This document shows, piece by piece, positions 5,652 through 42,066 of a stretch of DNA of 42,066 bases (position 1 is the first letter of the stretch; every line of letters starts with the position of its first letter). The position numbers and the translations under genes are program-made. This DNA comes from a virus. The notes beneath the pieces were generated by a model. The model was not told where the DNA came from and did not search any database. It was given only the letters and a program-made list of their open reading frames with translations. The stretch lies in UHGV virus genome UHGV-0115695. One strand, 5' to 3'.

Positions 5652-6947
5652 TCACGCGGTCTGGTTAGGCAGACCAACACCAATTGCCTCTGGTCGTACA
5701 GCACATGCTGAATACCACACAGCAATACGGCACTTACCAGACAGAGTGTTGATATCACCCTGCGTTGCGAAGATGCCGTTAACACCAATACCAGGAATGC
5801 TGAAGGAAGACGTTTTCATGCCAGCAAACAGTTCATGGGTTACCGGGATCGGCTGAGACAGTAGACGGATTGAGTCATCAGCCCAGAACACGTTAGCGGT
5901 GGTTGTTGCCACGTTCAGAACGTTTACCGGAGTGGTATCAGCAAGAGAGGTGTTTACATTCGCGTAAGCCTTCTCTTCTTTTGTCAGTGACGCGTCATCA
6001 AGTGCAATCGGCTTCGGCGTGATTTCGATGTGAGTACTATCGATCACACGGGTGATTGAGAAAGTTGCATCATCAGTCAGCACGTTCTTCGCCATCTGAG
6101 ACAGGAATTTCACACCAGTGAAGCTTATTTTGTCGCCGCGCTTAAATCCGGTGGTGGAGGATACGGTCACCGTTGCAACACGGTTGTCGACGTTCTCTTT
6201 GTTACCATCGGTATCAAGGGTGTATGCCTGCGGCTTAAACTTCTGCGCACCAGAAACAGTTACACCAGTAGCGGTTGACTTGGTAACTGCCGGAAGTTTC
6301 GGTGAGCGAAGAATTTCATCAAAGCCAGCAATCTGACGCTGAATAGTACCGTTGCGATACGCTTCTTCAGGAACGCGCCCGAAGATGTCACCATCTACCA
6401 GGTTGCGGCCTGCTTTGCGGTAATCGTCGGGGTTCAGGAAGTAACTGATGCCCATATCGCGGTTTAGCTCACGGGAGAACATCAGGCGCTCTGCATCAGA
6501 CACAAAATCCCAGCCAGACAGGCCAGTAGATGGACCAATTGCGCGGGTATCGTGAACAACAAGCGAGCCCATTTCAGTTGCCTGTTTGGCAATCGCTGAC
6601 TCAATGTTATTCGCCAGTTTTTTGGCGGATGCCTGGATGCGGCGACGGTAAGAACGCTCATCACGCAGGTCATCTGCACGAAGCTCGAAGAAATCGTTAT
6701 CCGGATCGCCCATGTTGCATTTCACGGAGAGTTCCAGAATCCCGGTTGCGTTGCCAGTTAAATCCCAGCCAGTCTGGGTTGGCGCTTCCTGCTCAACAGG
6801 CATCCACACGGTGTTGCTTGAACGCTGCATGGATTGTGCCGGAGGGGTGTATTTTGTCACTTTGGACGCCATTGGCGTCAGATTCTGGACGGTTTCGATG
6901 ATTTCATCGATAGCGTAAGTAACTAACTGCCCTTCTTTGAGAGTCAT
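5652..6947 (-). CDS. 5: Major capsid (coat) protein, P22 gp5 homologue
   Basis: 431 aa; strong similarity along the whole length to recalled P22 coat protein (e.g. ...[15 protein letters not shown]-terminus). Confidence 0.95.
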
Positions 6948-7014
6948 ATATTGAATACCTTACTTTCTTTATGTGCTATACTATTGTTATATCAACATAT
7001 AGCGCATTAGGGTT

Positions 7015-7536
7015 ATGAGCATGGAACTGAATGAATACTTCGAATACCGCGATGGTTTTTTGGTTTGGAAAGCCAGAAGCTCTGAATTTTTCAACAACAA
7101 AAAGAATCGCAACTATCACAACGTTTGGAATGCAAAACACGCTGGGAAAGTTGCTGGTCTTTTAGAAAGCAATGGATATATCCGCATAAGAATTAACGGC
7201 ATTAAGTGGCTAGCACACCGAATCGTATGGGTGATGTTTAACGGAGATATTCCAGAAGGCATGGAAATTGACCATATAAATGGGATTCGCCACGACAACA
7301 GAATTGAAAATCTTCGTCTTGTGAAAAAATCAGCAAACCAAAGGAATAGAATCAAACTATCTAAAAATAACTCCAGCGGAATATCTGGAGTTTACTTTTG
7401 CAACACGCGGAAAAGATGGATCGCTCATAAGCGACTGCTTAATGCAAGAGTGCAAAAAGTATGTTCTTCATTCGAAGAGGCGAAAGAAGTAATCAGAAAG
7501 TTTGACGAGGAAAACAACATCACGATATCGAAATAA
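7015..7536 (+). CDS. Freestanding HNH homing endonuclease (HNH_3 motif plus AP2-like DNA-binding region)
   Basis: IDHINGIRHDNRIENLRLVKKSANQRN HNH motif; ISGVYFCNTRKRWIAHKR AP2-like segment; AT-rich gene, opposite strand to and wedged between scaffold and coat genes; own TATACT-like -10 upstream. Confidence 0.85.
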   Translation: MSMELNEYFEYRDGFLVWKARSSEFFNNKKNRNYHNVWNAKHAGKVAGLLESNGYIRIRINGIKWLAHRIVWVMFNGDIPEGMEIDHINGIRHDNRIENLRLVKKSANQRNRIKLSKNNSSGISGVYFCNTRKRWIAHKRLLNARVQKVCSSFEEAKEVIRKFDEENNITISK

Positions 7537-8448
7537 TTATCGAATTCCTTTATTCAGTTGCGCCTTGAGCTTGCGGTATGTCTCTACATCCCCTTTGTTT
7601 GCTGCCGCTTCCATCTGTTTTTCAATCGCAGAGATATTTGCAGCAACAGCGTGTCCCTGAATGGGTTCATCAGGTAACGGGGCTTCTGAAACAGGCTTTG
7701 CTCGAGGCTTGAGAGTTAAACGTTCTGACAGTCGAGTGAGTTCAATCAGTGCGGATTGCCCGTCCATCGCCAGCAACTGGCGTGTTTTCTCAGGATTAGC
7801 ACCAAGGTGATACATGAGAGCGGCGGATTTCTCCGGGAAGAGGCGCATGATGTCGGCACCGACTGCTGGCGGCACCAGTTGCATGAATGCATCCTCTTTC
7901 TCCTGATAGTCAGGGATATTGAGCTTTTCCGCTGCGTCGTAGTGCTTACGGGCTGCCTCGACGTATTGCGCTGATTGCTGGGTGAACTCCTGAGTTTTGC
8001 GACCCTGCTCGGCGACAGCCTGGCTTCGTGCGTCCATAGCCTTGATCTGCCATTCACTGTTTGCCTGCTGGAAGGCCGCCAGTGCGCGGCTCTGGTCATA
8101 GTCGTACTTAGCCAGTGCGTCTTCGGAAAGATAATCGTTAGGGTCTGGTTGTTTTGGTAACTCAGGGTTCACCCGCAGGTGCTCCGGCAACTCTCCACGC
8201 TTAACCGCTTCCATCTGCTGCTCAAGCTCACGCTGGCGTTTGCGTTCGATGCGGCGACGAGCAAATTCAGCATTAGTTGCCGGGTCTTGTTTTGGTTTCT
8301 CATCGTCTTTCAGGACAATCTCGAAGCCTTCTTCCTGACCTGCGTTGTCGTTGGCATTATCGACAACTAAGCCATCAGCAGATGCCGCTGCATGATTGCC
8401 GGGCAGGGTTAATTCTTCAGAAGCCTGAATGTCGGTGGTTTGGTCCAT
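7537..8448 (-). CDS. 8: Scaffolding protein, P22 gp8 homologue
   Basis: 303 aa, the same length as P22 gp8 as I recall it, with similarity to it throughout. Confidence 0.95.
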
Positions 8449-30691: not shown

Positions 30692-30859
30692 ATGCACTTC
30701 CGAGTCACAGGTGAATGGAATGGAGAGCCATTCAACAGAGTTATCGAAGCGGAGAACATCAACGACTGCTACGACCACTGGATGATATGGGCGCAGATAG
30801 CACATGCAGACGTAACCAATATTCGAATTGAAGAACTGAAAGAACACCAAGCCGTCTGA
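30692..30859 (+). CDS. Small hypothetical protein (55 aa)
   Basis: GGAGATGATAA then ATG; MHFRVTGEWNGEPFNRVIEAENINDCYDHWMIWAQIAHADVTNIRIEELKEHQAV. Confidence 0.4.
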   Translation: MHFRVTGEWNGEPFNRVIEAENINDCYDHWMIWAQIAHADVTNIRIEELKEHQAV

Positions 30860-30916
30860 TGGCGGTTTTTTATTGCCTGATTTGCAGGTTCGATTCCCTA
30901 TTCGGAGATAGCACTC

Positions 30917-31117
30917 ATGCAACACGAACTACAACCTGATTCACTGGTTGATTTGAAATTCATCATGGCTGATACTGGCTTCGGTAAAACCTTCATCTAT
31001 GACCGGATTAAGTCCGGCGACCTGCCAAAAGCCAAAGTTATCCACGGACGAGCAAGATGGTTATATCGTGACCATTGTGAATTCAAAAATAAGCTCTTAA
31101 GCCGCGCTAATGGGTAA
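30917..31117 (+). CDS. AlpA-family excisionase / transcriptional regulator (xis-like)
   Basis: 66 aa; HTH FIMADTGFGKTFIYDRIKSGDLPKAKV; directly upstream of and co-oriented with the integrase. Confidence 0.8.
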   Translation: MQHELQPDSLVDLKFIMADTGFGKTFIYDRIKSGDLPKAKVIHGRARWLYRDHCEFKNKLLSRANG

Positions 31118-31365
31118 AATAGCGGGTAAAATATTTTTCACATCTAAAAAATACCATTCCAATCAATCCCCTGCTGCCTCAAGTAGATGTCTGCAGGGGA
31201 CACCATGAACACTTCTCACTAAGTCCAATTAATTCCATAACTCACTGTTTTAACTGATATCATCTCCTTATACTCGTCCAGCAAAGTACCATTATTTCTA
31301 ATGGAATCTATACATCTTTGCGTATAACATTGTGTATAACTGAGTTCGATCTTTTTTCTATACAC

Positions 31366-32541
31366 ATGCTGCTATCTGACATCCAAATAAAAAGAGCAAA
31401 ACCGAAGGACAAACCCTATACGCTTAACGATGGTATGGGGCTATCACTCCTGATCGACACAGCGGGCAGTAAAGGCTGGCGTTTTCGCTATCGCTTTGCA
31501 GGTAAGCCTAAGATGATTTCCTTTGGCGTATATGGCGATGTGTCGTTGGCACAGGCACGTACCAAACGTGATGAAGCGCGTTCGATGTTAGCCAAAGGGA
31601 TAAACCCAAGTGAAGCCAGAAAAGCAGATAAGATTGCTTTGCAGTTCGCGCATGAGAACAGCTTTGAGTCTGTGGCCAGAGAATGGCACTCATCGAAAAA
31701 AGCCACCTGGTCAGAGGGTTATGCAAAAGAGGTTCTCAATTGTATGGAAAAGGATATTTTTCCTTTTATCGGCCAGCGCCCAATTGAGCAGATTGAACCA
31801 TTAGAACTGCTAACCGTCCTGCAAAAAATAGAGAAAAGAGGTGCGCTAGAGCAAACCAGTAAGATCCGCCGCCGCTGTGGTGAAGTGCTTCGTTATGCTG
31901 TTGCCACTGGTAGAGCAAAGTATAATTTTGCACCCGATTTAGCTATCGCACTCAACAAACCTAAAACCCAACACTTCCCGTTCCTGACTGAAAGCGAGTT
32001 GCCCGAGTTCGTTAATGCTCTGGATAACTATCAGGGCAGTTTAGTTACCAAATACGCCACGCAGCTGTTGATGCTAACAGGCGTGCGAACAATTGAACTA
32101 CGTGCAGCGGAATGGGCTGAGTTTGATTTAGATAATGCCTTATGGGAGATCCCCAAAGAACGGATGAAGAAACGCCGCCCCCATCTGGTTCCGTTATCAA
32201 CTCAGGCGATCAATATCCTGAAAAAGCTGCAAGAAATAACAGGGAATTACAGCCTCGTTTTCCCTGGCCGAAATGACGTCAGGAAACCAATGAGCGAAGC
32301 CAGCATCAACAAAGTGATAAAACTACTGGGTTATCACGGTCGGTTAACGGGTCACGGTTTCAGGCATACCATGAGCACCATCTTGCATGAGCATGGGTTT
32401 GAAAGTGCCTGGATTGAAATGCAGCTTGCGCATGTTGATAAGAACTCTATTCGAGGTACTTACAATCATGCGCAATATATTAAAGATCGACAAGTAATGA
32501 TGGAATGGTACGCTAGCTTATTAAATACGACCTGCTATTAA
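31366..32541 (+). CDS. int: Tyrosine integrase, P4-family (arm-type N-terminal DNA-binding domain)
   Basis: N-terminus IKRAKPKDKPYTLNDGMGLSLLIDTAGSKGWRFRYRFAGKPK typical of P4/CP4-57-type integrases; C-terminal catalytic region with R...HGFRHT...Y; ATG at 31366 preferred over the upstream TTG. Confidence 0.9.
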   Translation: MLLSDIQIKRAKPKDKPYTLNDGMGLSLLIDTAGSKGWRFRYRFAGKPKMISFGVYGDVSLAQARTKRDEARSMLAKGINPSEARKADKIALQFAHENSFESVAREWHSSKKATWSEGYAKEVLNCMEKDIFPFIGQRPIEQIEPLELLTVLQKIEKRGALEQTSKIRRRCGEVLRYAVATGRAKYNFAPDLAIALNKPKTQHFPFLTESELPEFVNALDNYQGSLVTKYATQLLMLTGVRTIELRAAEWAEFDLDNALWEIPKERMKKRRPHLVPLSTQAINILKKLQEITGNYSLVFPGRNDVRKPMSEASINKVIKLLGYHGRLTGHGFRHTMSTILHEHGFESAWIEMQLAHVDKNSIRGTYNHAQYIKDRQVMMEWYASLLNTTCY

Positions 32542-33471
32542 ATCCAGCATGAAACAAATATGGTGAGTAATTTGATACTGTTTGTTTTTTGGCAACCCAG
32601 GGAAATGCCTTACAGTTGGTTGACTATTGTAATAATAATAGTTAAGACCAATGTTGCTGCCAAACTGGGTTGGATGTTGGGGAACAAGATTTGTAATTTG
32701 ATCTGAAACATCTAAAAATTTTGCAGTAACATTTGAACTTCCTCGTTGCGTGTTGCTTGATACAAAATGACGAATCCAAACTGTATTCGCTTGTAAATTC
32801 TTGAACACCAAATGTGCGGCAACAGCAGAAGGTTGACCACCTCCAAGATCTAGTACCTGGCCAGTAATTGTATAATCGCCAAATCCTAAGTAATTTTGTC
32901 CCACGAATTGATGTGCGTGCGTGAAAAGTTCCGGCCCATTATAATCAGCATTTTTTGCTAACTTTCTAAAGTTATCGCTAATAATAATTAACTTCGACAA
33001 AGGAAGAAGAGCGCACTGATTAGGAAGCATTTTATTATTTAAAACAACATGATAACTAATCAATTGATTTGTCGCCAACAACTGAATATCAGAGTTGGAT
33101 AATGATGGATTATCATATAGAAGTGCAACTCGTCTATTTAAGTTAGCATTCAACCAATTATTAATATCATTAATCGTTGTATTGGGCTGAATAAGATATC
33201 CAGAGATGATATTGTTTTTATTTGTTAATACACTTGATAAATTTTGATTTAAAGTTAAGACGTTATTGTGTGAAGAAAAATCTTCCTGATAAGGATTAAG
33301 GATAACAATTATGTCAGAATTCCAAACATTTAAACATGTTAATAAATTTCTCGTATTGACGTTAATTGGTTCTAAAATTGGTAGCAGACCATTTAGGCTA
33401 ACTCCCTTCGCAACGAGGTCCCTAAGGCATAATAACTCTGTACTTCTCGCATACAAATATGGGCTATACAT
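32521..33471 (-). CDS. Unknown protein B of low-GC two-gene cassette (316 aa)
   Basis: Long uninterrupted ORF, AT-rich codon usage distinct from flanks, 22 nt downstream of protein A; only weak motif VLDLGGGQ; no family recognised. Confidence 0.75.
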   Translation of the reverse strand: MYSPYLYARSTELLCLRDLVAKGVSLNGLLPILEPINVNTRNLLTCLNVWNSDIIVILNPYQEDFSSHNNVLTLNQNLSSVLTNKNNIISGYLIQPNTTINDINNWLNANLNRRVALLYDNPSLSNSDIQLLATNQLISYHVVLNNKMLPNQCALLPLSKLIIISDNFRKLAKNADYNGPELFTHAHQFVGQNYLGFGDYTITGQVLDLGGGQPSAVAAHLVFKNLQANTVWIRHFVSSNTQRGSSNVTAKFLDVSDQITNLVPQHPTQFGSNIGLNYYYYNSQPTVRHFPGLPKNKQYQITHHICFMLDLIAGRI

Positions 33472-33492
33472 AACTTACAACTCCTGAGGATA

Positions 33493-34374
33493 TCAACAAA
33501 TTTTAATTTTTACATCCATCAAATTCATGATGAATTCTTTTTGCTTTCTTGATAATGGTGTTGCATAACCTAAAACACGTAAACATGCTGGAAGAGAATA
33601 AATATAATCCAAAAAAACTTTGTCGTTACATCTTTTTTTCATAGCAGAGATAAAGTATTTATTTGCTATGTTTAATGGCATCTGCATGAATATCTCTTTA
33701 CAATATTCATAAACCAATCCATTAGGCATATTTATTTTAGTTGAAGTGTAATCTTCTATTATAGCTAAGAACTCTTCCTTTCTAAGAACTGAAAACAAGC
33801 TGTCACTTTTAATATAATCAATATTTGAATCTGCCTCCTTAATGACACTCAATTGATCTTTTTTATTCAAAACCATAACTCCCACTCTGGGGAGATTTAA
33901 AGCACAATATTTACTTGCATACTCTGGATGTGTAACTATATACACTTTATCAAAAACATCCAAATAATCAGGGGCTTGAGTAATCAACCTTTTTGGTGAA
34001 TCATACTCTGTCTTAATCTCGTAAGCTGTAGACGTACCATTAAACACCGCAACATCCACTATAGAGTTTTTAATTGGTAACTCTATGGACGACGAACTTG
34101 TTTTTGGGCTGTGCTTACCGAATATTATTTTATTGACAAGTGCTGTCTTATAAACATATTCATTTCTATAATTCAGACGCAAAAAATCATATAATGATGT
34201 AAATAAATCCCTTAGTGAAATCTCATGTTCATTATTATCATTGTTTGAAAACAGTGTTTCATAGCAGTAAGAATCAAAACTCCCAAATAAATCCGAAATA
34301 TCCTTACCTTTTGCTAAGGATGAAAAAATGGGGCGACGGAAAAATTTAGCATATTCCTTTTTATTATGACTCAT
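33493..34374 (-). CDS. Unknown protein A of low-GC two-gene cassette (293 aa), possible PD-(D/E)xK-like nuclease
   Basis: Long ORF, AT-rich; segment SIVDVAVFNGTSTAYEIKTE has the D...ExK spacing of restriction-endonuclease-fold catalytic cores (inference only). Confidence 0.75.
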   Translation of the reverse strand: MSHNKKEYAKFFRRPIFSSLAKGKDISDLFGSFDSYCYETLFSNNDNNEHEISLRDLFTSLYDFLRLNYRNEYVYKTALVNKIIFGKHSPKTSSSSIELPIKNSIVDVAVFNGTSTAYEIKTEYDSPKRLITQAPDYLDVFDKVYIVTHPEYASKYCALNLPRVGVMVLNKKDQLSVIKEADSNIDYIKSDSLFSVLRKEEFLAIIEDYTSTKINMPNGLVYEYCKEIFMQMPLNIANKYFISAMKKRCNDKVFLDYIYSLPACLRVLGYATPLSRKQKEFIMNLMDVKIKIC

Positions 34375-35054
34375 TACTCATACTCTATAAACATCATGCA
34401 ATTTGATAAGTTATGACGAATTCTCACCATCCAGTTACTACCTGTACATACTAATCAAAAAAAACGAGTACGCAAGATACGAAAGTACTTTTCTTGTTCA
34501 CCAGTTAGCTTACCTTGATCCTCACCAGCGACTGGAAGATAGGTAGCAGTATATGTGGAAACCTTCCCCTAGCTAGGTCTACAAACGTAGTTTGGGCATT
34601 TAGGCTCCACGATTCACGGTTTGACACGGCCTGATATCTGCACATTCGTTTTGATATGCAGCAATCGTGAAAAAGGGAAAATATACGCTCGACAGACCAA
34701 AACGGCACTACACCGCACCCGCCTGCGGTTTTCATATCACTAAAAATTTTCAGCCTGGATTTTTTACAAACGATACCGCCAGTCCGTGCCAGTCCTCGAG
34801 ATGTACTGCGATACAGGAACTGAAAAGAATGAAAAGAAATTCATTTTTTTTCAGTTTTACTGTCCGTCGAATCTATGGCCTGAATACGCAACTCTATGAT
34901 ATTAAATGGATAATTAATTTTAGGTGTGTGATTTTATGAAGGTTTGTGAAACATGAAGAAGATAACCAGTTGAAAAATAATAATTTTATGACCGTATAAA
35001 CTGAAATCCTGTGTTCAGGTTCCGGGAACAGATCGGCCATTCCCGACGCATACT

Positions 35055-35327
35055 TTACCCATTCTTTTGCGCAGCCAGCAGCAACTTTAAAGCCTTTTCC
35101 CGTTCCTCGGGTGGAATTGCATCAATCAGCTCTTTAACCCTTCCCTGCCCGTTCAGCGCGCTTGGACTAACGGAATGGGAGAAAGCAACATTCATCACAA
35201 ACGAGTGACCGCACTCCACATTAGAGCAATAGCAGTACACATCGTACAGTTGTGGGTGTTTCCTGTTTGTTTTACCTATCCGTGCTACTGCCTGACATGT
35301 GGGGCAGTACATTCTCATCATCTTCAT
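35055..35327 (-). CDS. ogr: Ogr/Delta-family zinc-finger late transcription activator
   Basis: 90 aa; CPTCQ...CYCSNVECGHSF zinc-finger arrangement typical of P2 Ogr / P4 Delta. Confidence 0.8.
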   Translation of the reverse strand: MKMMRMYCPTCQAVARIGKTNRKHPQLYDVYCYCSNVECGHSFVMNVAFSHSVSPSALNGQGRVKELIDAIPPEEREKALKLLLAAQKNG

Positions 35328-35392
35328 CGTTCTGTGCCCTATACTGTTGCCCGCCAGAAGAAGGGATTTGGATCCCTACCTCTTGTTCTGAA

Positions 35393-35585
35393 CGTGTAAC
35401 ACTGGTAACACGTGTAACGCTATTGATTTAAAAGGATTTAATCTGTTACCAGTTAGCAAAATCAAGAGGTAACGCGTGGTAACACACCATTTTTTGTTAC
35501 CTCTGTTACCAGTCAGTATTTTTGACTGGTAACACTGAAGAACCGCATCAGTAACGGGTGTTACCTCTGTTACCAGTGTTACCTC
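35393..35585. repeat. Iteron array (about 12 GTTACC/GGTAAC cores in both orientations), putative satellite replication origin
   Basis: Repeated TGTTACC and its complement read directly in the sequence, immediately 3' of the primase gene; resembles P4 TGTTCACC iterons bound by alpha. Confidence 0.7.
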
Positions 35586-35609
35586 ATAAAAATAAGACTC
35601 ACGCGATAA

Positions 35610-38297
35610 TCACTCAGGTTCAGCGCTTCCCAGTACCTGTGTATTGAACTGGTACACACGTTTAAGCCCTATTTCTGGCAGGCGAATGCTGTTTTGCGTC
35701 CGGCCATCTTCACCGGGTTTCAGCCAGCCCGCGTCCACACACAACCTGGCCACCTTACGCGAGTCAAATCCCTTACAGATCTCCTTCCAGCCTGACGGGA
35801 GAACGTAGAACGTCACAACCGGCTCTGTCACGTTGTCTCCTTTATCGACTTTTCTGAATCCCATCATTGAAACAGGCCGGTTCCTGTCGTCATTCCAGTC
35901 AGCAAACCGACTGAACTGATTACGCGTCATGAAGTCCCGAACCTGTTCAAGTGCCGCTTTATCTTCCTGATTAGCTGTATGGCCCCGGTCAGCCATCCAT
36001 GCAGCCAGACAGCTTTGAGCGGCACGAAAGGCCTCTCCCTCCGGCCATCCTGTGATGCCCGCTTTTGTGGCCAGCTCCCCGGCCATCGCAACCAGAGCAA
36101 AACGGGTAACAGCCCGGCCAACCTGATTCCCGGCATTTTCCGGCGTCAGCCTTCGGGTATACTCTTTCAATAAGGCTTTCGCCTGACTGGTCAGTTCCGG
36201 CAGATCAGCGGTCAGGCAATACAGCCAGTCGCGGAATGGTGCACCATGATAATGCGCTACGTGCTGCTCAAGATGCTCAGCCAGGGTTTTCCCGCTACTG
36301 AAGCCATGAAGTTCTTCAAACACGCCATACTTGCCCGAATCGCTTGGGATCTGGATCATTCTGACCTCAACCCCGGCATACGTACGTTCCCCGGCGCTTG
36401 CCGCATGCTCTACCAGTGACAGTTCCCCGGTAGACAGAAACAACAGATTCCAGCGGTTGGTTTCCCTTACCGAACCATCTGTTCTGGCTCTGGCTTTGCC
36501 CTGCCCGTTAGCCAGCATATAAGCGATATTCCCCGCCTCCCTGCCGTCAACCTCCCGGATTTCATCCAGCATCAGCGTGGCATCATTGCGGCGGCTCGCC
36601 GTTCCTTCTAAGGCATTCCCCGTCGCCCGCCACGTATGCCAGAAATCTGTTCCACCACATACTGATGCAGCCACTTTCATCGTCGTGGTTTTACCGTCTG
36701 TGGATTCCCCTTTGAGGTGATAACCTCCACCGCCGATACCAACCAGTTTCAGAAGGGGGGCAGCAAATGCCAGACTCACCGCAAAGGCAAGACGGGCATT
36801 CTTTATGCAATAACGGCCTATATTTTCACGCCAGCCCTCTGATGTGCCGCTGACACGAAAATCACGCCCCTGCACACTCGATGTTTGTAAGATGACTGAC
36901 TGGGCTTCGCGCCCTATCACTTCATCCTGGAGAACGTAAACCCCGCCGTGCCAGCCAGTTTTATTCACACAGGTTACTTTTCTGTCCGGTTTACACAGCG
37001 AGATATATTCCATCAGGAATGCTCTGGCCATGCCATTAATGTTGATGTAAGAAAGCCCGTTAACCAGCAGAACGCGGCGCAGTTCTTCCCCGCTACCGCC
37101 CAGCATCTCCATCGGCATTGCCCATTTACGGCTGTTTCCGTTGGTATCTTCCCATTCCAGCAAACGCCCGTAATTACTTCCATCAGCATCACTGGTGATT
37201 GCCGTCACCCGCAACGGACTGCAAATTTTGATATTACGTATCTCTGTATCACCATCAGACTTATTAACCAGCTTGTCGTACCACAAATATTCTTTTGTCA
37301 GCCGGAACCCTTCTGGTAAACGGGTCTGCCCTTTGCCATGCAGCGTCATTTCTTCACGAAAGGCATCTCTCGCCCGTTCTTTCCCCACTTCCTGCCGATA
37401 ATCATCCCAGTCAGCCTTATGGCGTACCGGAGGGAGCGTTACCCAGCCATCCACCGCTTTGGCGGCTTTCTCTGCCTGAATACGCCCGGTGTTTTCTTTG
37501 CCGTCAGCCAGATCATTATCTCCGGCCAGAATGATCCGAGTTTCCGGCCAGCGTTTTCGGATCTGCTCCGTCACCTTCAGTAAATTGGTGGCAGCGACAG
37601 CCGCCACGATCCATCCTTCAGTCAGCAGACTGACGGTAAGCGCCGTGGCAAAACCCTCAGTGATAATCACCTGTTCAGGTGTTTCAGCGGGTATATCGGT
37701 CAGGGCAATGAATGCGCCAGACAGCTGGCTACCGGGCAGCAGACTTTTATCCCCGTCAGGATTGATAAGCTGGCCACCAGTAATATTCCCGGAAATATCC
37801 GTCAAAGGCAGCAGTAATGAACCGGTGGAAAATGTTATTCCGGCCAGATTCAAAGGCTGTGACAGCAAGGGAAGTGAATACCCGTGTAAGCCCTTATTTG
37901 TCAGATAGACCGGCTCACCATTGCAGGACTGCTGTCTGAGTCTGGTATATCGCTCCGCGCCCGCTTCTTTTCCTGCGGCCTTTTTCCTGGCTGGCAATGC
38001 GGGCTTCTCCTGTATTTCTGGTAATGCAAGCGCCTCAGATACCATCCCGGCGACTTCTTTTATCTTTCTTCCTGTCACCAGACGAACCAGATCAAGACCA
38101 TCGCCATGACCGCACTGATTACAAAACCACGTCCCTCGCCCCGCTTTATCGTCCAGTCGAAAACGATCTTTTCCACCACAGGCAGGGCAAGCCCCATGAT
38201 GTCCTGCGGACGGTACTTTAATACCTAATGCTGACAGGATATAAGGCCAGCGCCCAATTGCAGCTCCGGAAATCGTGGATACAGACGGTGTTTTCAC
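35610..38297 (-). CDS. Primase-helicase, P4 alpha family
   Basis: 895 aa; N-terminal zinc ribbon CPACGGKDRF...CNQCGHG, Toprim-like ITEGFATALTV, C-terminal helicase with Walker A GESTDGKTT. Confidence 0.9.
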   Translation of the reverse strand: MKTPSVSTISGAAIGRWPYILSALGIKVPSAGHHGACPACGGKDRFRLDDKAGRGTWFCNQCGHGDGLDLVRLVTGRKIKEVAGMVSEALALPEIQEKPALPARKKAAGKEAGAERYTRLRQQSCNGEPVYLTNKGLHGYSLPLLSQPLNLAGITFSTGSLLLPLTDISGNITGGQLINPDGDKSLLPGSQLSGAFIALTDIPAETPEQVIITEGFATALTVSLLTEGWIVAAVAATNLLKVTEQIRKRWPETRIILAGDNDLADGKENTGRIQAEKAAKAVDGWVTLPPVRHKADWDDYRQEVGKERARDAFREEMTLHGKGQTRLPEGFRLTKEYLWYDKLVNKSDGDTEIRNIKICSPLRVTAITSDADGSNYGRLLEWEDTNGNSRKWAMPMEMLGGSGEELRRVLLVNGLSYININGMARAFLMEYISLCKPDRKVTCVNKTGWHGGVYVLQDEVIGREAQSVILQTSSVQGRDFRVSGTSEGWRENIGRYCIKNARLAFAVSLAFAAPLLKLVGIGGGGYHLKGESTDGKTTTMKVAASVCGGTDFWHTWRATGNALEGTASRRNDATLMLDEIREVDGREAGNIAYMLANGQGKARARTDGSVRETNRWNLLFLSTGELSLVEHAASAGERTYAGVEVRMIQIPSDSGKYGVFEELHGFSSGKTLAEHLEQHVAHYHGAPFRDWLYCLTADLPELTSQAKALLKEYTRRLTPENAGNQVGRAVTRFALVAMAGELATKAGITGWPEGEAFRAAQSCLAAWMADRGHTANQEDKAALEQVRDFMTRNQFSRFADWNDDRNRPVSMMGFRKVDKGDNVTEPVVTFYVLPSGWKEICKGFDSRKVARLCVDAGWLKPGEDGRTQNSIRLPEIGLKRVYQFNTQVLGSAEPE

Positions 38298-38704
38298 AGC
38301 AGCACCTCCTGACCTTCCGGCTTCACAAATTCAAAACCTTCGGGTAGTTCGCCATCAGGTGCTCCGAAAATAATATCCCGGTAAACCTCACGCATCTCTG
38401 TGACACCAAAAACTGACAGGCGAATATTTTCTGACATAAAGCCTGGTTTAAGCATTTTTTCCAGTTTCTCTGCGGCCAGTATGCAACCAGCATCAGCCCC
38501 AAACTCATTCACCCACGGCATTTCAATATGGTAAATAATATTACTCACCACTTTTTCGTGGGAGAGTTCTATTCGTTCGCCATCTTCAATATAAACAGGT
38601 TCATTATGAACACGCACCATTAAGGAAATGAATGCATCAGCAATGTAGTAGCGTAAGACTGCTGTTCGTAAAGCATGCGCCTTTAAATTTTGATTATTAT
38701 TCAT
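38294..38704 (-). CDS. Hypothetical satellite protein
   Basis: 136 aa; stop overlaps primase start (ATGA); no family recognised. Confidence 0.5.
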   Translation of the reverse strand: MNNNQNLKAHALRTAVLRYYIADAFISLMVRVHNEPVYIEDGERIELSHEKVVSNIIYHIEMPWVNEFGADAGCILAAEKLEKMLKPGFMSENIRLSVFGVTEMREVYRDIIFGAPDGELPEGFEFVKPEGQEVLL

Positions 38705-38933
38705 CGCGCATCACTCCCTTAATTGTGCTGGTTTCCTTAACAACGCCATCCAGTTGTTCGGCAATACAGGCCACTAAAGCCGCAGCGCCTTCCGCTGAAA
38801 CAGTTCTCGCTCCATTCACTGTGGGCACGGACAAGACCTCTGCAAGAAACTCACTGGCCAGTGCCGCCCGTAACAGACGACTCTCCCCCTGTTCACTCAA
38901 TATGCAGCCTTGCTTAAAATTCATGGATTTCAT
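38697..38933 (-). CDS. Hypothetical satellite protein
   Basis: 78 aa; overlapping coupled ORF upstream of the 136-aa gene. Confidence 0.45.
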   Translation of the reverse strand: MKSMNFKQGCILSEQGESRLLRAALASEFLAEVLSVPTVNGARTVSAEGAAALVACIAEQLDGVVKETSTIKGVMRDE

Positions 38934-39133
38934 GCAACCACCTCCCCGGCTCTTTTCACAGGGATACGGGCAGCAAAGCTCAGGATAAATTCAGTGGCAA
39001 GTTTAAGGCGTGCAGCATGCTCGCATTCTGCGATTACACGCACAGGGCGTGGACGGGCATCACGGTCTGTACGGCGGACAGCCAGAAAGACAAAGGTAAA
39101 TTCAGGGTGAGATAAAGCAGGGACTGTAGCCAT
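38930..39133 (-). CDS. Hypothetical small basic protein (internal start of the 196-aa track ORF)
   Basis: 67 aa from MATVPALSHPEF...; GAAGGAGG RBS 8 nt upstream; the long N-terminal extension crosses an apparent promoter region and is rejected. Confidence 0.45.
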   Translation of the reverse strand: MATVPALSHPEFTFVFLAVRRTDRDARPRPVRVIAECEHAARLKLATEFILSFAARIPVKRAGEVVA

Positions 39134-39607
39134 AATGGCAACCTCCTTCAGATAGCGGGTAACGCTACCACCGGAGTTCCTACGCTCATGGGTGGTAGCC
39201 CAGACGGGGGTAGGAATACCGGCTCTGAAGGATACCGGCCAGCCCGAAAGCTGCCCCGCCTGGACTACCATAATTCTGATGATGTGGCGTAAAAAATAAA
39301 AAAATACAATCAGCCACCACACCATAAATTTTAGGTGAGTCAAAGCTGCGACACAAAAAAACACGCCTGGCGCGTGTAGTATCGCCTTCAGATAACACGG
39401 GTTCCTACGCCCGGCTGCCGATTTTGCGGCAACCTTTAAACTATATCCCGCGCATTCCTGGTGAGGCAAGAAATTTATAACCGAAAACTGATCATTGCCT
39501 GGATTAATTAACGCTGGCATGCTTAAGCCTCTGCTTAAAAATAGTTCTTCATTTTTCCTGATGCTGTAAACGAGACCCGCCTCTGAGCGGGTCTTTCTGT
39601 CGCTAAG

Positions 39608-40612
39608 TCAATCCGCAAACGTCAGGGCGCTCTCATCGACAGCCGCGTACAGTTCAGGTTCACCGAGTGCATAACCTTCATTGCGCAGGTAGGAATGCAC
39701 GTATTCACTGCTTTCATCATCAAACTCAGCACGAAACCAGCGTGTTATCGCCTGAGTGTAAATATGCAGATTATCCAGCGTCGTTACTGCCAGACGCTTA
39801 CCCGGCATAAACGGGGGAATAAACGCAAAGCGGCCAGCAACAGAACTTGTAGCCATCTGTGCCGCATTCACATCAGACGGGCGGTCTGCGGCATTAAATA
39901 ACTTCAGGCGTTGATGTGCTGCCAGCTCTGCCCCAACCAGTACAACCAGACGAGGATCTTCACGAAACTGCTCAGCAATAAGCTCTGTAATCAGATGGTT
40001 GGCCAGAGCATCAATATTTTTCCAGGTGCCAGTCTCTCCCAGAGTGACAGGCTCAGAGATGATTTGCTTTCCGTTCCCGTAGGCTTTCGCCAGTGCATGC
40101 CAGCCAATATTGACATCCTCGCCTTTTTTATTGATTTCCGGGTTTGTAGTATTTGCAATCGACACACCATTGAAACCGACCCGCAGCATGTCCAGCGCAT
40201 ATGCCTGGGCAAAAAAGCTCTCAACCGTTTTCTCAAACTCATCCGGCACGCCGGTATGGTAAATATGAGACATATCGGAATAGCTGATCCGGGCGCAGGT
40301 ATCCGTCTCTGTCAGAAAGAACTCCGTACCATTGATTGCCATTTTTTTGTGGAAACGGCCACCATCCACACGTCCGGTATACAGTTCACTGGCACCAATA
40401 TTGACGGCATTACCTGACACGGCGTTAACATCACGTAGGGTAATATTTTTAATAAGCCACCCGGATTCCAGAATTGAGGTACGCAGTATATTTTCAGTAG
40501 GTTCGCTTAATGCAAAGCGTCTGTTTGATTCTTCCTGATAGTTAGTGCCAGTGACGAATTTATTATGATAACGACGTGCTGCGTCCGGCCTTTCAGTTTT
40601 GAAGGCATACAT
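39608..40612 (-). CDS. Putative major capsid protein, P2 gpN-like (recalled similarity; unverified)
   Basis: 334 aa; segments GFNGV...GW, DALANHLITELIAEQFREDPRLVVLVGAELAA and TTLDNLHIY resemble what I recall of P2 gpN. Confidence 0.5.
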   Translation of the reverse strand: MYAFKTERPDAARRYHNKFVTGTNYQEESNRRFALSEPTENILRTSILESGWLIKNITLRDVNAVSGNAVNIGASELYTGRVDGGRFHKKMAINGTEFFLTETDTCARISYSDMSHIYHTGVPDEFEKTVESFFAQAYALDMLRVGFNGVSIANTTNPEINKKGEDVNIGWHALAKAYGNGKQIISEPVTLGETGTWKNIDALANHLITELIAEQFREDPRLVVLVGAELAAHQRLKLFNAADRPSDVNAAQMATSSVAGRFAFIPPFMPGKRLAVTTLDNLHIYTQAITRWFRAEFDDESSEYVHSYLRNEGYALGEPELYAAVDESALTFAD

Positions 40613-40634
40613 AGTTTTTCACCTTTTTAAGTAT

Positions 40635-41495
40635 TTAAGAAAAGATTTTATTTTTGTACTCAGTAACCAGATTGTATTTCATTACATGCTCAACATAATC
40701 CCGGTCACTTACGACTGAACGTAATACATAATTATCTGCTCGATAGTACTCCCTGTAAGCCATAGCTCTTGCCATTCCACCGTTATTTAATACATAACGA
40801 TCAGTTGGAACGCTACAACGACTAATAATTTCACTCACGGAATCAGATAAAGACTTGAGTGCATCAGTAATAAATTTAATATCACGGACAACGTCACTGT
40901 CATTAAATACAGAAATAAAATCAGCAGGGATCTGGCCGGATTGAGGAAATATATTCAGTAAACGCTTATCGATTCCCTTCCCAATGTAGTTTCCTTCATC
41001 GGCCAGTACTCCCGGCAAAAGCTTGATCGTGCTCAATCGACTATGTTGTTCATTCAACCGGGAAACAGCCAGATGGTAATACCGTTCAGCATCCGCTCGT
41101 TCAGCATGCCCCATTTTATTCGTTTTGGCTTCAGCAATGCTACTGACGCCGTTTTTTGAGAATGTGCTTTTCCATGCAACTTCCGCATTTGTCACTTCAC
41201 GCTGCCGGAAAGATAACTCTTCCTCTTCCTGACGACACAACTGGGCATAACGGCTCAGGAGCAGGTTGATCTCATTCGCCACAGTTTCCGTATCAGGTAC
41301 TGTTAACCCCGTAAGTGAATACAGCTTTTCACCTTTAGCTCGCAGCTTATTCAGTGAATATATTTCAATAATACGCACAATACAGGCCGTGTCGCTATGA
41401 GTCTCTTTAAATGATCTTACTTTGTAACTATCTAACACCGACACATGTTCGTTCTTAATTGATGCCAATTTCTTCTTAAAAACATTGTCAACCAT
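40635..41495 (-). CDS. Hypothetical protein, possibly capsid scaffold-like by position and size
   Basis: 286 aa, immediately upstream of the gpN-like gene (P2 gpO is about the same size and precedes N); AT-rich; no motif recognised. Confidence 0.35.
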   Translation of the reverse strand: MVDNVFKKKLASIKNEHVSVLDSYKVRSFKETHSDTACIVRIIEIYSLNKLRAKGEKLYSLTGLTVPDTETVANEINLLLSRYAQLCRQEEEELSFRQREVTNAEVAWKSTFSKNGVSSIAEAKTNKMGHAERADAERYYHLAVSRLNEQHSRLSTIKLLPGVLADEGNYIGKGIDKRLLNIFPQSGQIPADFISVFNDSDVVRDIKFITDALKSLSDSVSEIISRCSVPTDRYVLNNGGMARAMAYREYYRADNYVLRSVVSDRDYVEHVMKYNLVTEYKNKIFS

Positions 41496-41512
41496 ATATT
41501 TGCCACCTCAAT

Positions 41513-41755
41513 TTAGGAGTTTAATTTTCTATTGAGAATATTCTTCTCTATCCATTCATTAACTTCATGCTCCACCCATGCAACAGAACGAGAACCGATA
41601 GAAACTTGGTTCGGAAATTCATCATTCTTTATCTTTAGATAAATTGTTGACTTGGGTAAGCCAGTCAAATTAATCACTTCTGATATTCTCAGAAGTCTAT
41701 ATCTTTTTTGGGGTGCGTTTTCCCGAGGCAATAAGCTCATGGCTATGTCCTTCAC
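41513..41755 (-). CDS. AlpA-family transcriptional regulator of the satellite
   Basis: 80 aa; RLLRISEVINLTGLPKSTIYLKIKNDEFPNQVSIGSRSVAWVEHEVNEWI HTH typical of AlpA; first gene of the minus-strand operon. Confidence 0.8.
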   Translation of the reverse strand: MKDIAMSLLPRENAPQKRYRLLRISEVINLTGLPKSTIYLKIKNDEFPNQVSIGSRSVAWVEHEVNEWIEKNILNRKLNS

Positions 41756-41871
41756 ATTAGATATTTATACTAAGACTTAATTAGTCTCTATTGGGTGTAT
41801 ATATACTTGCACAGAAGAATTAATACGTAAAGACTGGCACTTTCAAACTCATTCAAAGAATTTGAATACTA

Positions 41872-41901
41872 AATAATGGTGAATAATAGTTAATAATGGT
41901 G
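41872..41901. repeat. Three tandem 10-bp units AATAATRGTK upstream of the satellite alpA gene
   Basis: aataatggtg / aataatagtt / aataatggtg read consecutively; helically phased, in an AT-rich promoter region. Confidence 0.6.
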
Positions 41902-42012
41902 AGTATTACTGAGTGACAACCTTTGCCAATGCTTGTTAATCTCTGATAATAATGAAATTTGACGAATAATATATGTAACAATTTGTAAACTAAAGACTGC
42001 ATTAGGTTTGTT

Positions 42013-42062
42013 GGGGCTGGGCTGGGCTGGGCTGGGCTGGGCTGGGCTGGGCTGGGCTGGGG
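42013..42062. repeat. Hexanucleotide microsatellite, about 8 copies of GGGCTG
   Basis: Perfect period-6 array at the window edge. Confidence 0.95.
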
Positions 42063-42066
42063 AAGA

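Follow-up and report, generated by a model that had tools for sequence, protein, structure and literature searches.

A phage satellite at the Escherichia coli argW tRNA gene with a P4-type backbone and a predicted ESSI-2-like Peduoviridae helper

INTRODUCTION

Phage satellites of the P4 type carry, in a genome of about 11 kb, a tRNA-site integrase, a leftward operon led by AlpA/Vis, an immunity system based on the CI/C4 RNA, small open reading frames (ORFs), a primase with short iterons, an Ogr/Delta-family activator and a cos site that mimics that of the helper. Gram-negative phage-inducible chromosomal islands (PICIs), such as EcCICFT073 and PmCI172 (PMC6092414), fall in the size range of 10-20 kb and possess int, a one-directional operon led by alpA, pri, an origin directly 3′ of pri and a specific attachment (att) site. 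A homologue of the capsid protein of the helper family is present in 21 of the 29 reference Gram-negative PICIs (PMC10111431), and why satellites retain such a copy is a question still open for this group. We analysed a satellite that offers a natural case for this question. It lies in the virus genome UHGV-0115695, a stretch of 42,066 nt (the whole of it is called the window below), in which the original prediction, made from the letters alone, had noticed a P4-like satellite module next to a P22-like prophage.

The satellite shares with P4 all the traits listed above, with the same order of AlpA, immunity RNA, small ORFs, primase and short iterons; the sequence of its candidate cos differs. 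It also shares those listed for Gram-negative PICIs, its att repeats being copies of the end of the argW tRNA gene 10,994 bp apart, and its architecture fits the description of a Gram-negative PICI equally well as that of a P4-like satellite. It differs from these islands in that its predicted helper belongs to the Peduoviridae and is neither lambdoid nor Mu-like, and in having P4/P1-type RNA immunity and Ogr, with no Rpp or TerS recognised. We consider it probable that a P4-type backbone is combined here with a helper-exploitation module from ESSI-2/ev015-like, HP1-arranged Peduoviridae, that the life cycle is the one proposed below and that the P22-like neighbour is not the helper. Judged by its genes, the satellite is of P4/PICI type with a piracy module from a different Peduoviridae lineage, and is not conceptually unprecedented. 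The searchable literature yielded no description of this family, and no paper in which satellites are named for ESSI-2, Quadragintavirus or Seongnamvirus phages; the family may already be catalogued, unnamed, in SatelliteFinder datasets.

AN INTACT SATELLITE AT THE argW tRNA GENE

The 7-kb stretch in which the module had been noticed is 99.9-100% identical to one locus in many complete E. coli genomes. In strain THO-003 the same element is solitary, between the argW tRNA and dsdC, and its order is argW tRNA, integrase, sce7725, sce7726, ogr/delta, primase, two small ORFs, Icd-like ORF, capsid, 286-aa ORF, AlpA and dsdC, the integrase lying directly beside the tRNA. The 3′-terminal 19 nt of this tRNA, ATTCCTGCAGGGGACACCA, are repeated 10,994 bp downstream, just ahead of dsdC, which gives the length of the satellite from repeat to repeat. 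In the window, the attL core CTGCAGGGGACACCA (Table 1) is identical to the final 15 nt of the THO-003 argW tRNA, and to its right the window continues as THO-003 does after the tRNA. The attR, a 19-bp copy (ATTCCTGCAGGGGACACCA), is present in both THO-003 and E62, a near-identical locus, and would lie about 117-135 bp past the window end at 42066. The satellite thus spans 31191 to just past the end of the window, flanked by a 15-bp and a 19-bp copy of the argW 3′ end.

Because THO-003 carries the same element alone, the integrase and the two cargo genes have to be counted as part of the satellite, whose beginning had been set at 35055 in the original prediction. It had also been considered that the region might be a degraded remnant lacking intact ends, or that a P2-like prophage might lie immediately beyond the window. 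Both ends proved to be intact, and no P2-like prophage follows: beyond the window come attR and then dsdC or csc genes. The att site that had been sought by extension past 42066 is indeed found there, about 135 bp beyond, and the integrase of the satellite lies inside the window. By its ends and gene content, the element is an integrative phage satellite of the E. coli argW tRNA gene.

A (GGGCT)9 microsatellite occupies 42014-42058, between the alpA upstream region and attR. Its copy number differs between strains (9 in THO-003, 10 in E62).

A cos-LIKE SITE SHARED WITH ESSI-2-LIKE PHAGES

Between ogr and the cargo genes, the satellite carries a block (34680-34860) that aligns, as a single unbroken stretch, with the two ends of the ESSI-2 record, and also with the end of the ESSI2_ev015 record (ev015 below). 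ESSI-2 is a Cronobacter phage (Seongnamvirus) and ev015 an Escherichia phage (Quadragintavirus). The ESSI-2 record has a 15-nt terminal repeat, GCGGGTGCGGTGTAG. The ev015 record (LR597649.1) opens, at 1-48, with a Nextera transposase adapter (…TCGTCGGCAGCGTCAGATGTGTATAAGAGACAG) to which cos-proximal sequence is directly joined, as expected at a physical DNA end.

The 22-nt core of the block, GCACTACACCGCACCCGCCTGC, does not vary among nine satellites, drawn from at least seven genera, and three phage or prophage sequences; the flanks diverge, with the TTTTTCAG and CTGAAAAG motifs being kept. The exact 19-nt core was found in at least 119 IMG/VR contigs. Among the first 80 of these loci, 54 adjoin an ev015-type terminal tail gene (52-99% protein identity) and five are satellites of the present family. 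In an ev015-like prophage of E. coli JNE12-007 (locus L022), tail genes are followed by the cos-like site, a three-gene cargo and the host gene mntR; the site is internal to the prophage and is therefore not an att site. No match to the P2/P4 cos, GGCGAGGCGGGGAAAGCAC, was detected in the whole window when up to three mismatches were allowed. We concluded from these comparisons that the block probably mimics the cos of ESSI-2-like, HP1-arranged Peduoviridae. The ends of the virion DNA should then lie within CTACACCGCACCCGC (34708-34722).

A cargo slot beside cos has been described for P2 and P4 (PMC9122126). In the JNE12-007 prophage, the three genes between the cos-like site and mntR (L022 positions 6381-8240) encode PIN, STAS-like and ATP-binding proteins and form a cos-adjacent hotspot in the predicted helper lineage. 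A 7.8-kb contig labelled ‘Salmonella phage S.Kent 1-2-1’ was considered as packaged satellite DNA and rejected: it is a fragment of an ev015-like phage running from tail genes through cos.

Ogr AND CAPSID POINT TO THE SAME HELPER GROUP

The Ogr/Delta activator gene named in the original prediction is present. Its product is 52% identical to that of the ogr-like gene of ev015, 50% to that of ESSI-2 and 51% to that of the Salmonella phage SI7, against 21% to P4 delta. It has a single domain and is nearer to phage Ogr proteins than to P4 delta. The phage genes adjoin the portal gene in ev015 and ESSI-2, and the SI7 gene lies near one record end.

Genes of a P2-like helper had been stated to be absent from the window. 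The satellite nevertheless encodes a full-length homologue of the P2-family major capsid protein, which is 49% identical over its full length to the capsids of ESSI-2 and ev015, 42% to that of SI7 and about 25% to P2 gpN, and which matches the solved capsids 7oz4 and 7jw1. It is the sole structural homologue found in the satellite with Pfam and PHROGs. Portal, protease, head-tail connectors and terminase gave no match among the ORFs from ogr to alpA and the integrase (Pfam, PHROGs) or in the two cargo genes (Pfam).

Since cos, Ogr and capsid, three independent modules, all point to the same group, the predicted helper is an ESSI-2-like Peduoviridae phage, normally non-resident in the same genome. 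The ratio of the satellite to the helper genome (10,994/30,584 = 0.36) is the same as that of P4 to P2, and satellite and helper would parallel P2/P4 in another branch of the Peduoviridae. With an identical 22-nt cos core and a matching Ogr and capsid family, an anonymous ‘prophage-like island’ becomes a satellite-helper pair that can be tested.

THE 286-aa GENE UPSTREAM OF THE CAPSID GENE

In contrast to P4, the satellite carries inside its AlpA operon a complete capsid gene and, directly upstream of it, an orphan gene for a protein of 286 aa. This protein had no match in Pfam, NCBIfam or PADLOC and only a weak one in PHROGs, to an unrelated family (E 0.002); tblastn of 50,697 phage records gave nothing at E≤1. 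The family comprises about 105 clusters, all unannotated and restricted to Enterobacteriaceae save for one contig labelled Vagococcus. An AlphaFold (AF2) model built from 30 sequences (pLDDT 87) is all-alpha with long hairpins, and its fold matches are generic coiled coils only. Identity with a known scaffold, Sid or Psu was rejected: hhalign against the ev015 scaffold gave a probability of 0.6%, and there was no sequence match in the PDB, where the family profile also found nothing, the P4 procapsid entry 7jw1 included.

The gene lies immediately 5′ of the capsid gene, as does the scaffold gene in Peduoviridae (266 aa in ev015, 274 aa in ESSI-2). From this position, the scaffold-like length and the all-helical model, it can reasonably be inferred, and nothing more, that the protein may be scaffold-like or size-determining.

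A P4-RELATED BACKBONE

The operon led by AlpA on the minus strand, as originally proposed, was confirmed, and all genes of the satellite except int are transcribed one way. The integrase is 40% identical to P4 Int over its full length (405 aligned positions) and AlpA is 46% identical to P4 orf88. The assignment of an alpha-type primase-helicase holds for one half of the protein: residues 5-317, the primase part, are 38% identical to P4 alpha, whereas the helicase half is of the DUF927 type and not of the D5 type found in P4 alpha (D5_N/DUF5906/Pox_D5). An iteron array had also been noticed, and indeed nine exact copies of GGTAACA/TGTTACC are packed in it, with three elsewhere in the 42 kb. Chance would give 3.4 for the whole window, and none of 100 shuffles reached the total of 12. 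The array starts 27 bp downstream of the primase stop codon and is the presumed replication origin.

Other P4 components were not detected. No satellite protein had a BLASTP match to P4 Sid at E≤0.01. The Psu model PF07455 matches P4 Psu, but neither the integrase nor any of the nine ogr-to-alpA proteins, and BLASTP detected none. P4 epsilon corresponds to the Pfam family Derepression (PF25738), for which Pfam and BLASTP found no counterpart in the satellite; Phage_ASH is present in the satellite, and in P4 that model matches the cI-ORF region, not epsilon. Of the signature of a P4-like satellite that had been put forward, the P4-related backbone thus stands, whereas Sid, Psu, epsilon and the P2/P4 cos were not found. 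In the seven-component scheme for P4-like satellites (PMC8628076), five components are nominally present, which marks the outer limit of ‘P4-like’.

The features listed in the original prediction were recovered; the cos-like site (34680-34860) and two immunity RNA genes, C4 and isrK, had been missed. Both RNA genes lie inside the 196-aa ‘Icd-like/Ash’ ORF, in its first two thirds; RefSeq names this ORF a host cell division inhibitor. At the isrK leader, the c4-a1b1 family of Rfam scores 43.8 bits, just under its gathering score of 46.7. Residues 84-188 of the ORF are 58% identical to the P4 ‘cI ORF’, and Pfam Phage_ASH also matches this ‘cI ORF’ in the P4 immunity region. The P4 ‘cI ORF’ overlies the CI RNA. 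It is likely that only the C-terminal, Icd-like part of the 196-aa ORF is a protein, and the Phage_ASH model may in part describe translated RNA genes.

DISTRIBUTION AND SELECTION

Among 5426 complete E. coli genomes, 450 (8%) contain the satellite, O25b:H4-ST131 strains among them. It is common in this species, and syntenic relatives of it occur in no fewer than six further genera of Enterobacteriaceae (Citrobacter, Enterobacter, Franconibacter, Kosakonia, Siccibacter and Phytobacter). The conserved order is 286-aa ORF, capsid, immunity region, 78-aa ORF, 136-aa ORF, primase, ogr and cos. Across these genera, AlpA is detectable upstream only in some loci, the integrase stands at either end and the cargo differs.

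Selection was estimated from pairwise ratios of nonsynonymous to synonymous substitution rates (dN/dS) against five related loci, where dS was estimable (it was saturated in several pairs). The values were 0.06-0.12 for the capsid gene, 0.04-0.07 for the primase, 0.04-0.21 for Ogr and at most 0.18 for the 286-aa gene. In Siccibacter colletis (locus L019, 10835-11836) the capsid homologue has one internal stop codon; the other copies compared are intact.

In E. coli BR1220 (locus L007, 10316-22666), a second variant of the satellite occupies thrW, a tRNA-Thr gene. Its core is 94-100% identical in protein sequence, its immunity-region ORF 80%. The integrase, 59% identical, stands at the opposite (AlpA) end, the cos-adjacent slot holds a small ORF and, at the position of sce7725, a Shedu nuclease, and an IS3 element splits ogr. 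The presence of such a core at thrW with a different integrase points to recent movement. Together these comparisons argue for a family that is functional and recently mobile, with occasional decayed copies.

THE P22-LIKE NEIGHBOUR AND THE TANDEM ARRANGEMENT

The description of the neighbour as P22-like was borne out by the annotation of the E62 locus, which gives P22-type coat, portal, gp4/gp10 and tailspike. The order in E62 is argW tRNA, intS, acyltransferase, tailspike, P22-type ejection, coat, scaffold, portal and terminase genes, then lysis, nin and replication genes, cI/cro, erf/abc, torI, the att core and the satellite int. In the window, torI is found at 30917-31117, and the 15-bp tRNA end at 31191-31205 lies between torI and the satellite int. 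The two elements thus have a common attachment site, argW, which had been raised as a question. The prophage has its own intS and torI at opposite ends, the full argW tRNA and intS being at the far left end in E62, and it is therefore a separate argW integrant. The integrase of the satellite is 46% identical to the prophage IntS, and its AlpA 27% identical to TorI.

A query across the torI/int junction was covered at 80% or more in 13 of the 5426 complete E. coli genomes, as compared with 450 for the satellite. Usually the satellite stands directly beside the tRNA. Tandems are therefore the exception, and the simplest account of them is that the satellite had regenerated a copy of the tRNA into which the prophage inserted later. 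In its satellite part the window matches E62 at 100% identity, as against 98.6% at the prophage/satellite junction (30700-31700), and it therefore derives from another strain, whose P22-like prophage differs slightly.

Tandems of this sort are prone to be read as one: satellites and unrelated prophages at one tRNA site get merged into single ‘viruses’ by prophage predictors. Ten uncultivated viral genomes of IMG/VR, about 48-51 kb long (one of 19.5 kb), terminate in this satellite; the P22-like prophage and the satellite were probably joined into one virus there during prophage prediction.

Between the scaffold and coat genes of the prophage, on the opposite strand, we observed an ORF for a 173-aa HNH_3 endonuclease (7015-7536, plus strand), where the local G+C content is lower (0.448). 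It resembles a free-standing homing endonuclease that has entered the head operon.

PROPOSED CYCLE AND ALTERNATIVE READINGS

In the proposed cycle, the RNA immunity would hold the operon silent until an incoming or induced helper turns it on. AlpA and Int would then excise the satellite, the primase-helicase would replicate it from the iterons and Ogr would cross-activate late genes. The helper terminase would cut and package the satellite DNA at the mimicked cos, and the capsid homologue, with the 286-aa protein, would shift assembly to small heads fitting 11 kb (36% of the 30.6-kb helper genome). The anatomy is seen in the sequence itself; redirection of capsid size by the satellite is a putative step.

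Several points weigh against this cycle and the helper proposed for it. Its steps are drawn from P4 and Gram-negative PICIs by analogy. In the best-studied Gram-negative PICI, transfer does not depend on the capsid homologue, which leaves capsid size unaltered (PMC6092414, PMC10111431), and the 286-aa protein resembles no scaffold or Sid. The ESSI-2-type cos cleavage site is deduced from record termini, for which the 15-nt repeat and the ev015 adapter are indirect evidence. The nearest known phage capsid and Ogr are about 50% identical, and the true helper lineage may be unsampled. Residence of the helper was assessed by megablast with the ev015-like terL, which detects only close ev015 relatives. 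The satellite is present in 450 genomes, this terL in 46 and their union in 492, so that by inclusion-exclusion both occur in four genomes against 3.8 expected, without enrichment. In blastn, the cos block matched 524 places in 518 genomes, so that at most six genomes have two cos-bearing elements. Finally, 421 of the 450 satellite copies share at least 99% identity, and much of this may be due to clonal inheritance, as in ST131. E62 itself has no ev015-like terL. Normally without a resident helper, the satellite would rely on incoming phages, or would be simply inherited in many lineages.

The same helper group might be exploited with no change of head size. Dimers or trimers of the satellite would then enter full-size heads as for EcCICFT073, neither the capsid homologue nor the 286-aa protein being a size factor, and the capsid gene would serve interference or decoration or be dispensable. 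We hold this to be possible, without regarding it as likely. In favour of it, deletion of c1499 in EcCICFT073 has no phenotype and the island uses full-size capsids (PMC6092414; PMC6893505), the capsid homologue present in so many of the reference Gram-negative PICIs is not required for transfer (PMC10111431), and no fold link between the 286-aa protein and scaffolds was found. It is more difficult to reconcile with a full-length capsid gene on which purifying selection is strong across genera, with a satellite whose 11.0 kb amounts to about a third of the helper genome, the same relation as between P4 and P2, or with the length of three copies (33 kb), which exceeds helper genomes of 28.8-30.9 kb by 7-14%; moreover, PmCI172, which has a capsid homologue, makes small heads. 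At the other extreme, the satellite might build its own small-head shell from its capsid and a 286-aa scaffold, and take from the ESSI-2-like helper the portal, maturation, terminase (via cos) and tail; we find this rather doubtful. Like capsid-forming PICIs (cf-PICIs), the satellite encodes its own major capsid protein and possibly a scaffold. Unlike them, it has no portal, protease, head-tail connectors, TerS or TerL and could not build or fill a head alone. If true, this mode of piracy would stand between P4 and PICIs, which remodel helper capsids, and cf-PICIs, which make a complete head and take only tails, and the 286-aa family would be a new class of capsid size determinant. For redirection of helper assembly, which we favour, there are parallels. 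As in the satellite, the capsid homologue of Gram-negative PICIs comes from the helper family, and no other structural or lysis homologue was found in the satellite; EcCICFT073 uses cos-type packaging, and in PmCI172 small capsids go together with the capsid homologue. Ccm of SaPIbov5, which redirects phi12 capsid assembly, is likewise a diverged homologue of the helper capsid protein and goes with reliance on the helper cos. The satellite differs from it in coming from Gram-negative bacteria, in its capsid subfamily and in the change expected, which would be from isometric T=7 to T=4 and not from prolate to isometric.

Other readings place the satellite outside this helper relationship. It could be a fixed, vertically inherited island, a domesticated carrier of defence genes that is now immobile in E. 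coli. The near-identity of its copies at one site, the rarity of resident helpers with their chance-level co-occurrence, and decayed copies (the IS3 in ogr of BR1220, the stop codon in the Siccibacter capsid gene) would fit this. We nevertheless consider it unlikely: the present element keeps all its genes and its two att repeats intact, dN/dS across genera is low, conservation of the cos core is perfect, and the same gene core also occurs at thrW beside a different integrase, as well as at the argW of Kosakonia and Enterobacter. A classical P4-like satellite exploiting P2-type (Peduovirus) helpers elsewhere in the genome was the default of the original prediction, and the P4-like Int, AlpA and primase domain, the CI/C4 RNA, the Ogr/Delta-family gene and the 11-kb size agree with it. 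The failure to find a P2/P4 cos, Sid, Psu or epsilon, together with identities of about 25% between the capsid and P2 gpN and 21% between Ogr and P4 delta, makes such a reading very improbable here. Use of the P22-like prophage as helper had also been suggested, and one may imagine that both elements move as one unit, given their tandem at one att site, the 46% identity of their integrases and the IMG/VR contigs of about 50 kb that merge them. The tandem junction is, however, present in 13 genomes against 450 for the satellite. The P22-like phage has its own type of terminase and capsid, whereas the satellite cos, Ogr and capsid are all of Peduoviridae type and nearest to those of ESSI-2 and ev015. 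We find no support for a helper role of the P22-like prophage, which would merely occupy the same integration site, and regard this last reading as scarcely credible.

OTHER FEATURES OF THE SATELLITE

The coordinates of the satellite features are collected in Table 1. The two small ORFs between the primase and the immunity region are maintained in most of the ten related loci compared: the 136-aa ORF at 61-99% identity in eight of them, with none found in L016, and the 78-aa ORF at 58-99% identity in nine; the remaining locus, L011, ends before this position in both cases. BLASTP gave no match between the 78-aa ORF and P4 epsilon, whose position it occupies.

Table 1. Coordinates of the satellite features in the window
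Feature	Position	Strand	Evidence and remarks
Satellite attL core (= prophage attR)	31191-31205	+	15-bp copy of tRNA-Arg (argW) 3′ end, CTGCAGGGGACACCA
Tyrosine integrase, P4/IntS family	31366-32541	+	Pfam Arm-DNA-bind_3 + Phage_int_M + Phage_integrase
Cargo gene, sce7725 family	32521-33471	-	NCBIfam NF033831, 242 bits
Cargo gene, sce7726 family, candidate defence gene	33493-34374	-	NCBIfam NF033832, 176 bits; PADLOC PDLC02989, E 1e-18
Candidate cos packaging site	34680-34860		Between ogr and cargo; core GCACTACACCGCACCCGCCTGC at 34705-34726, flanking TTTTTCAG / CTGAAAAG motifs
Ogr/Delta-type zinc-finger late activator, 90 aa	35055-35327	-	PF04606, E 5e-14; single domain
TGT-N12-ACA dyad (second)	35384-35401		About 65 nt upstream of ogr ATG
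Iteron array, presumed replication origin	35404-35583		180 bp, directly 3′ of primase gene
Primase-helicase, 895 aa	35610-38297	-	Zn_Ribbon_Prim + Toprim_3 + DUF927; PHROG 1139 DNA primase, E 2e-185
136-aa ORF	38294-38704	-	Position of P4 orf106; PHROG 5991, unknown function; no Pfam match
78-aa ORF	38697-38933	-	Position of P4 epsilon; PHROG 38507, unknown function
‘Icd-like/Ash’ ORF, 196 aa	38930-39520	-	Phage_ASH residues 26-141; Icd-like domain residues 141-188
C4/CI-type antisense immunity RNA	39188-39275	-	Rfam RF01695, 81.1 bits (gathering 45), E 5e-15, full-length match
isrK-type leader RNA with a1/b1-like C4 target	39356-39433	-	Rfam RF01394, 69.5 bits (gathering 50)
Major capsid protein homologue, P2 family, full length, 334 aa	39608-40612	-	PF05125, E 1e-66; PHROG 70
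Orphan all-helical protein, 286 aa	40635-41495	-	Directly upstream of capsid gene; candidate scaffold or size-determination factor
AlpA-family regulator/excisionase, first gene of operon	41513-41755	-	PF05930, E 6e-20; RefSeq start is ATG at 41740
TGT-N12-ACA dyad	41796-41813		Centre about 65 nt upstream of alpA ATG

Two TGT-N12-ACA dyads, the only ones in the satellite, precede alpA and ogr; by our own estimate chance alone would give about 2.7 in 10.9 kb. The late intergenic regions of the helper hold no exact copy. As Ogr-responsive promoters these dyads are weak candidates, a lead and not a finding.

The G+C content is low (0.31-0.36) over 33001-35000, in the cargo region. The sce7725 gene was considered as a homologue of P4 beta and this was rejected, there being no match to Pfam Beta_protein. 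The product of the sce7726 gene is 39% identical to P4 cII over 61 aa, and RefSeq also names P4 cII as sce7726 family. The cos-adjacent cargo hotspot thus holds a gene of this family both in P4 and in the present satellite.

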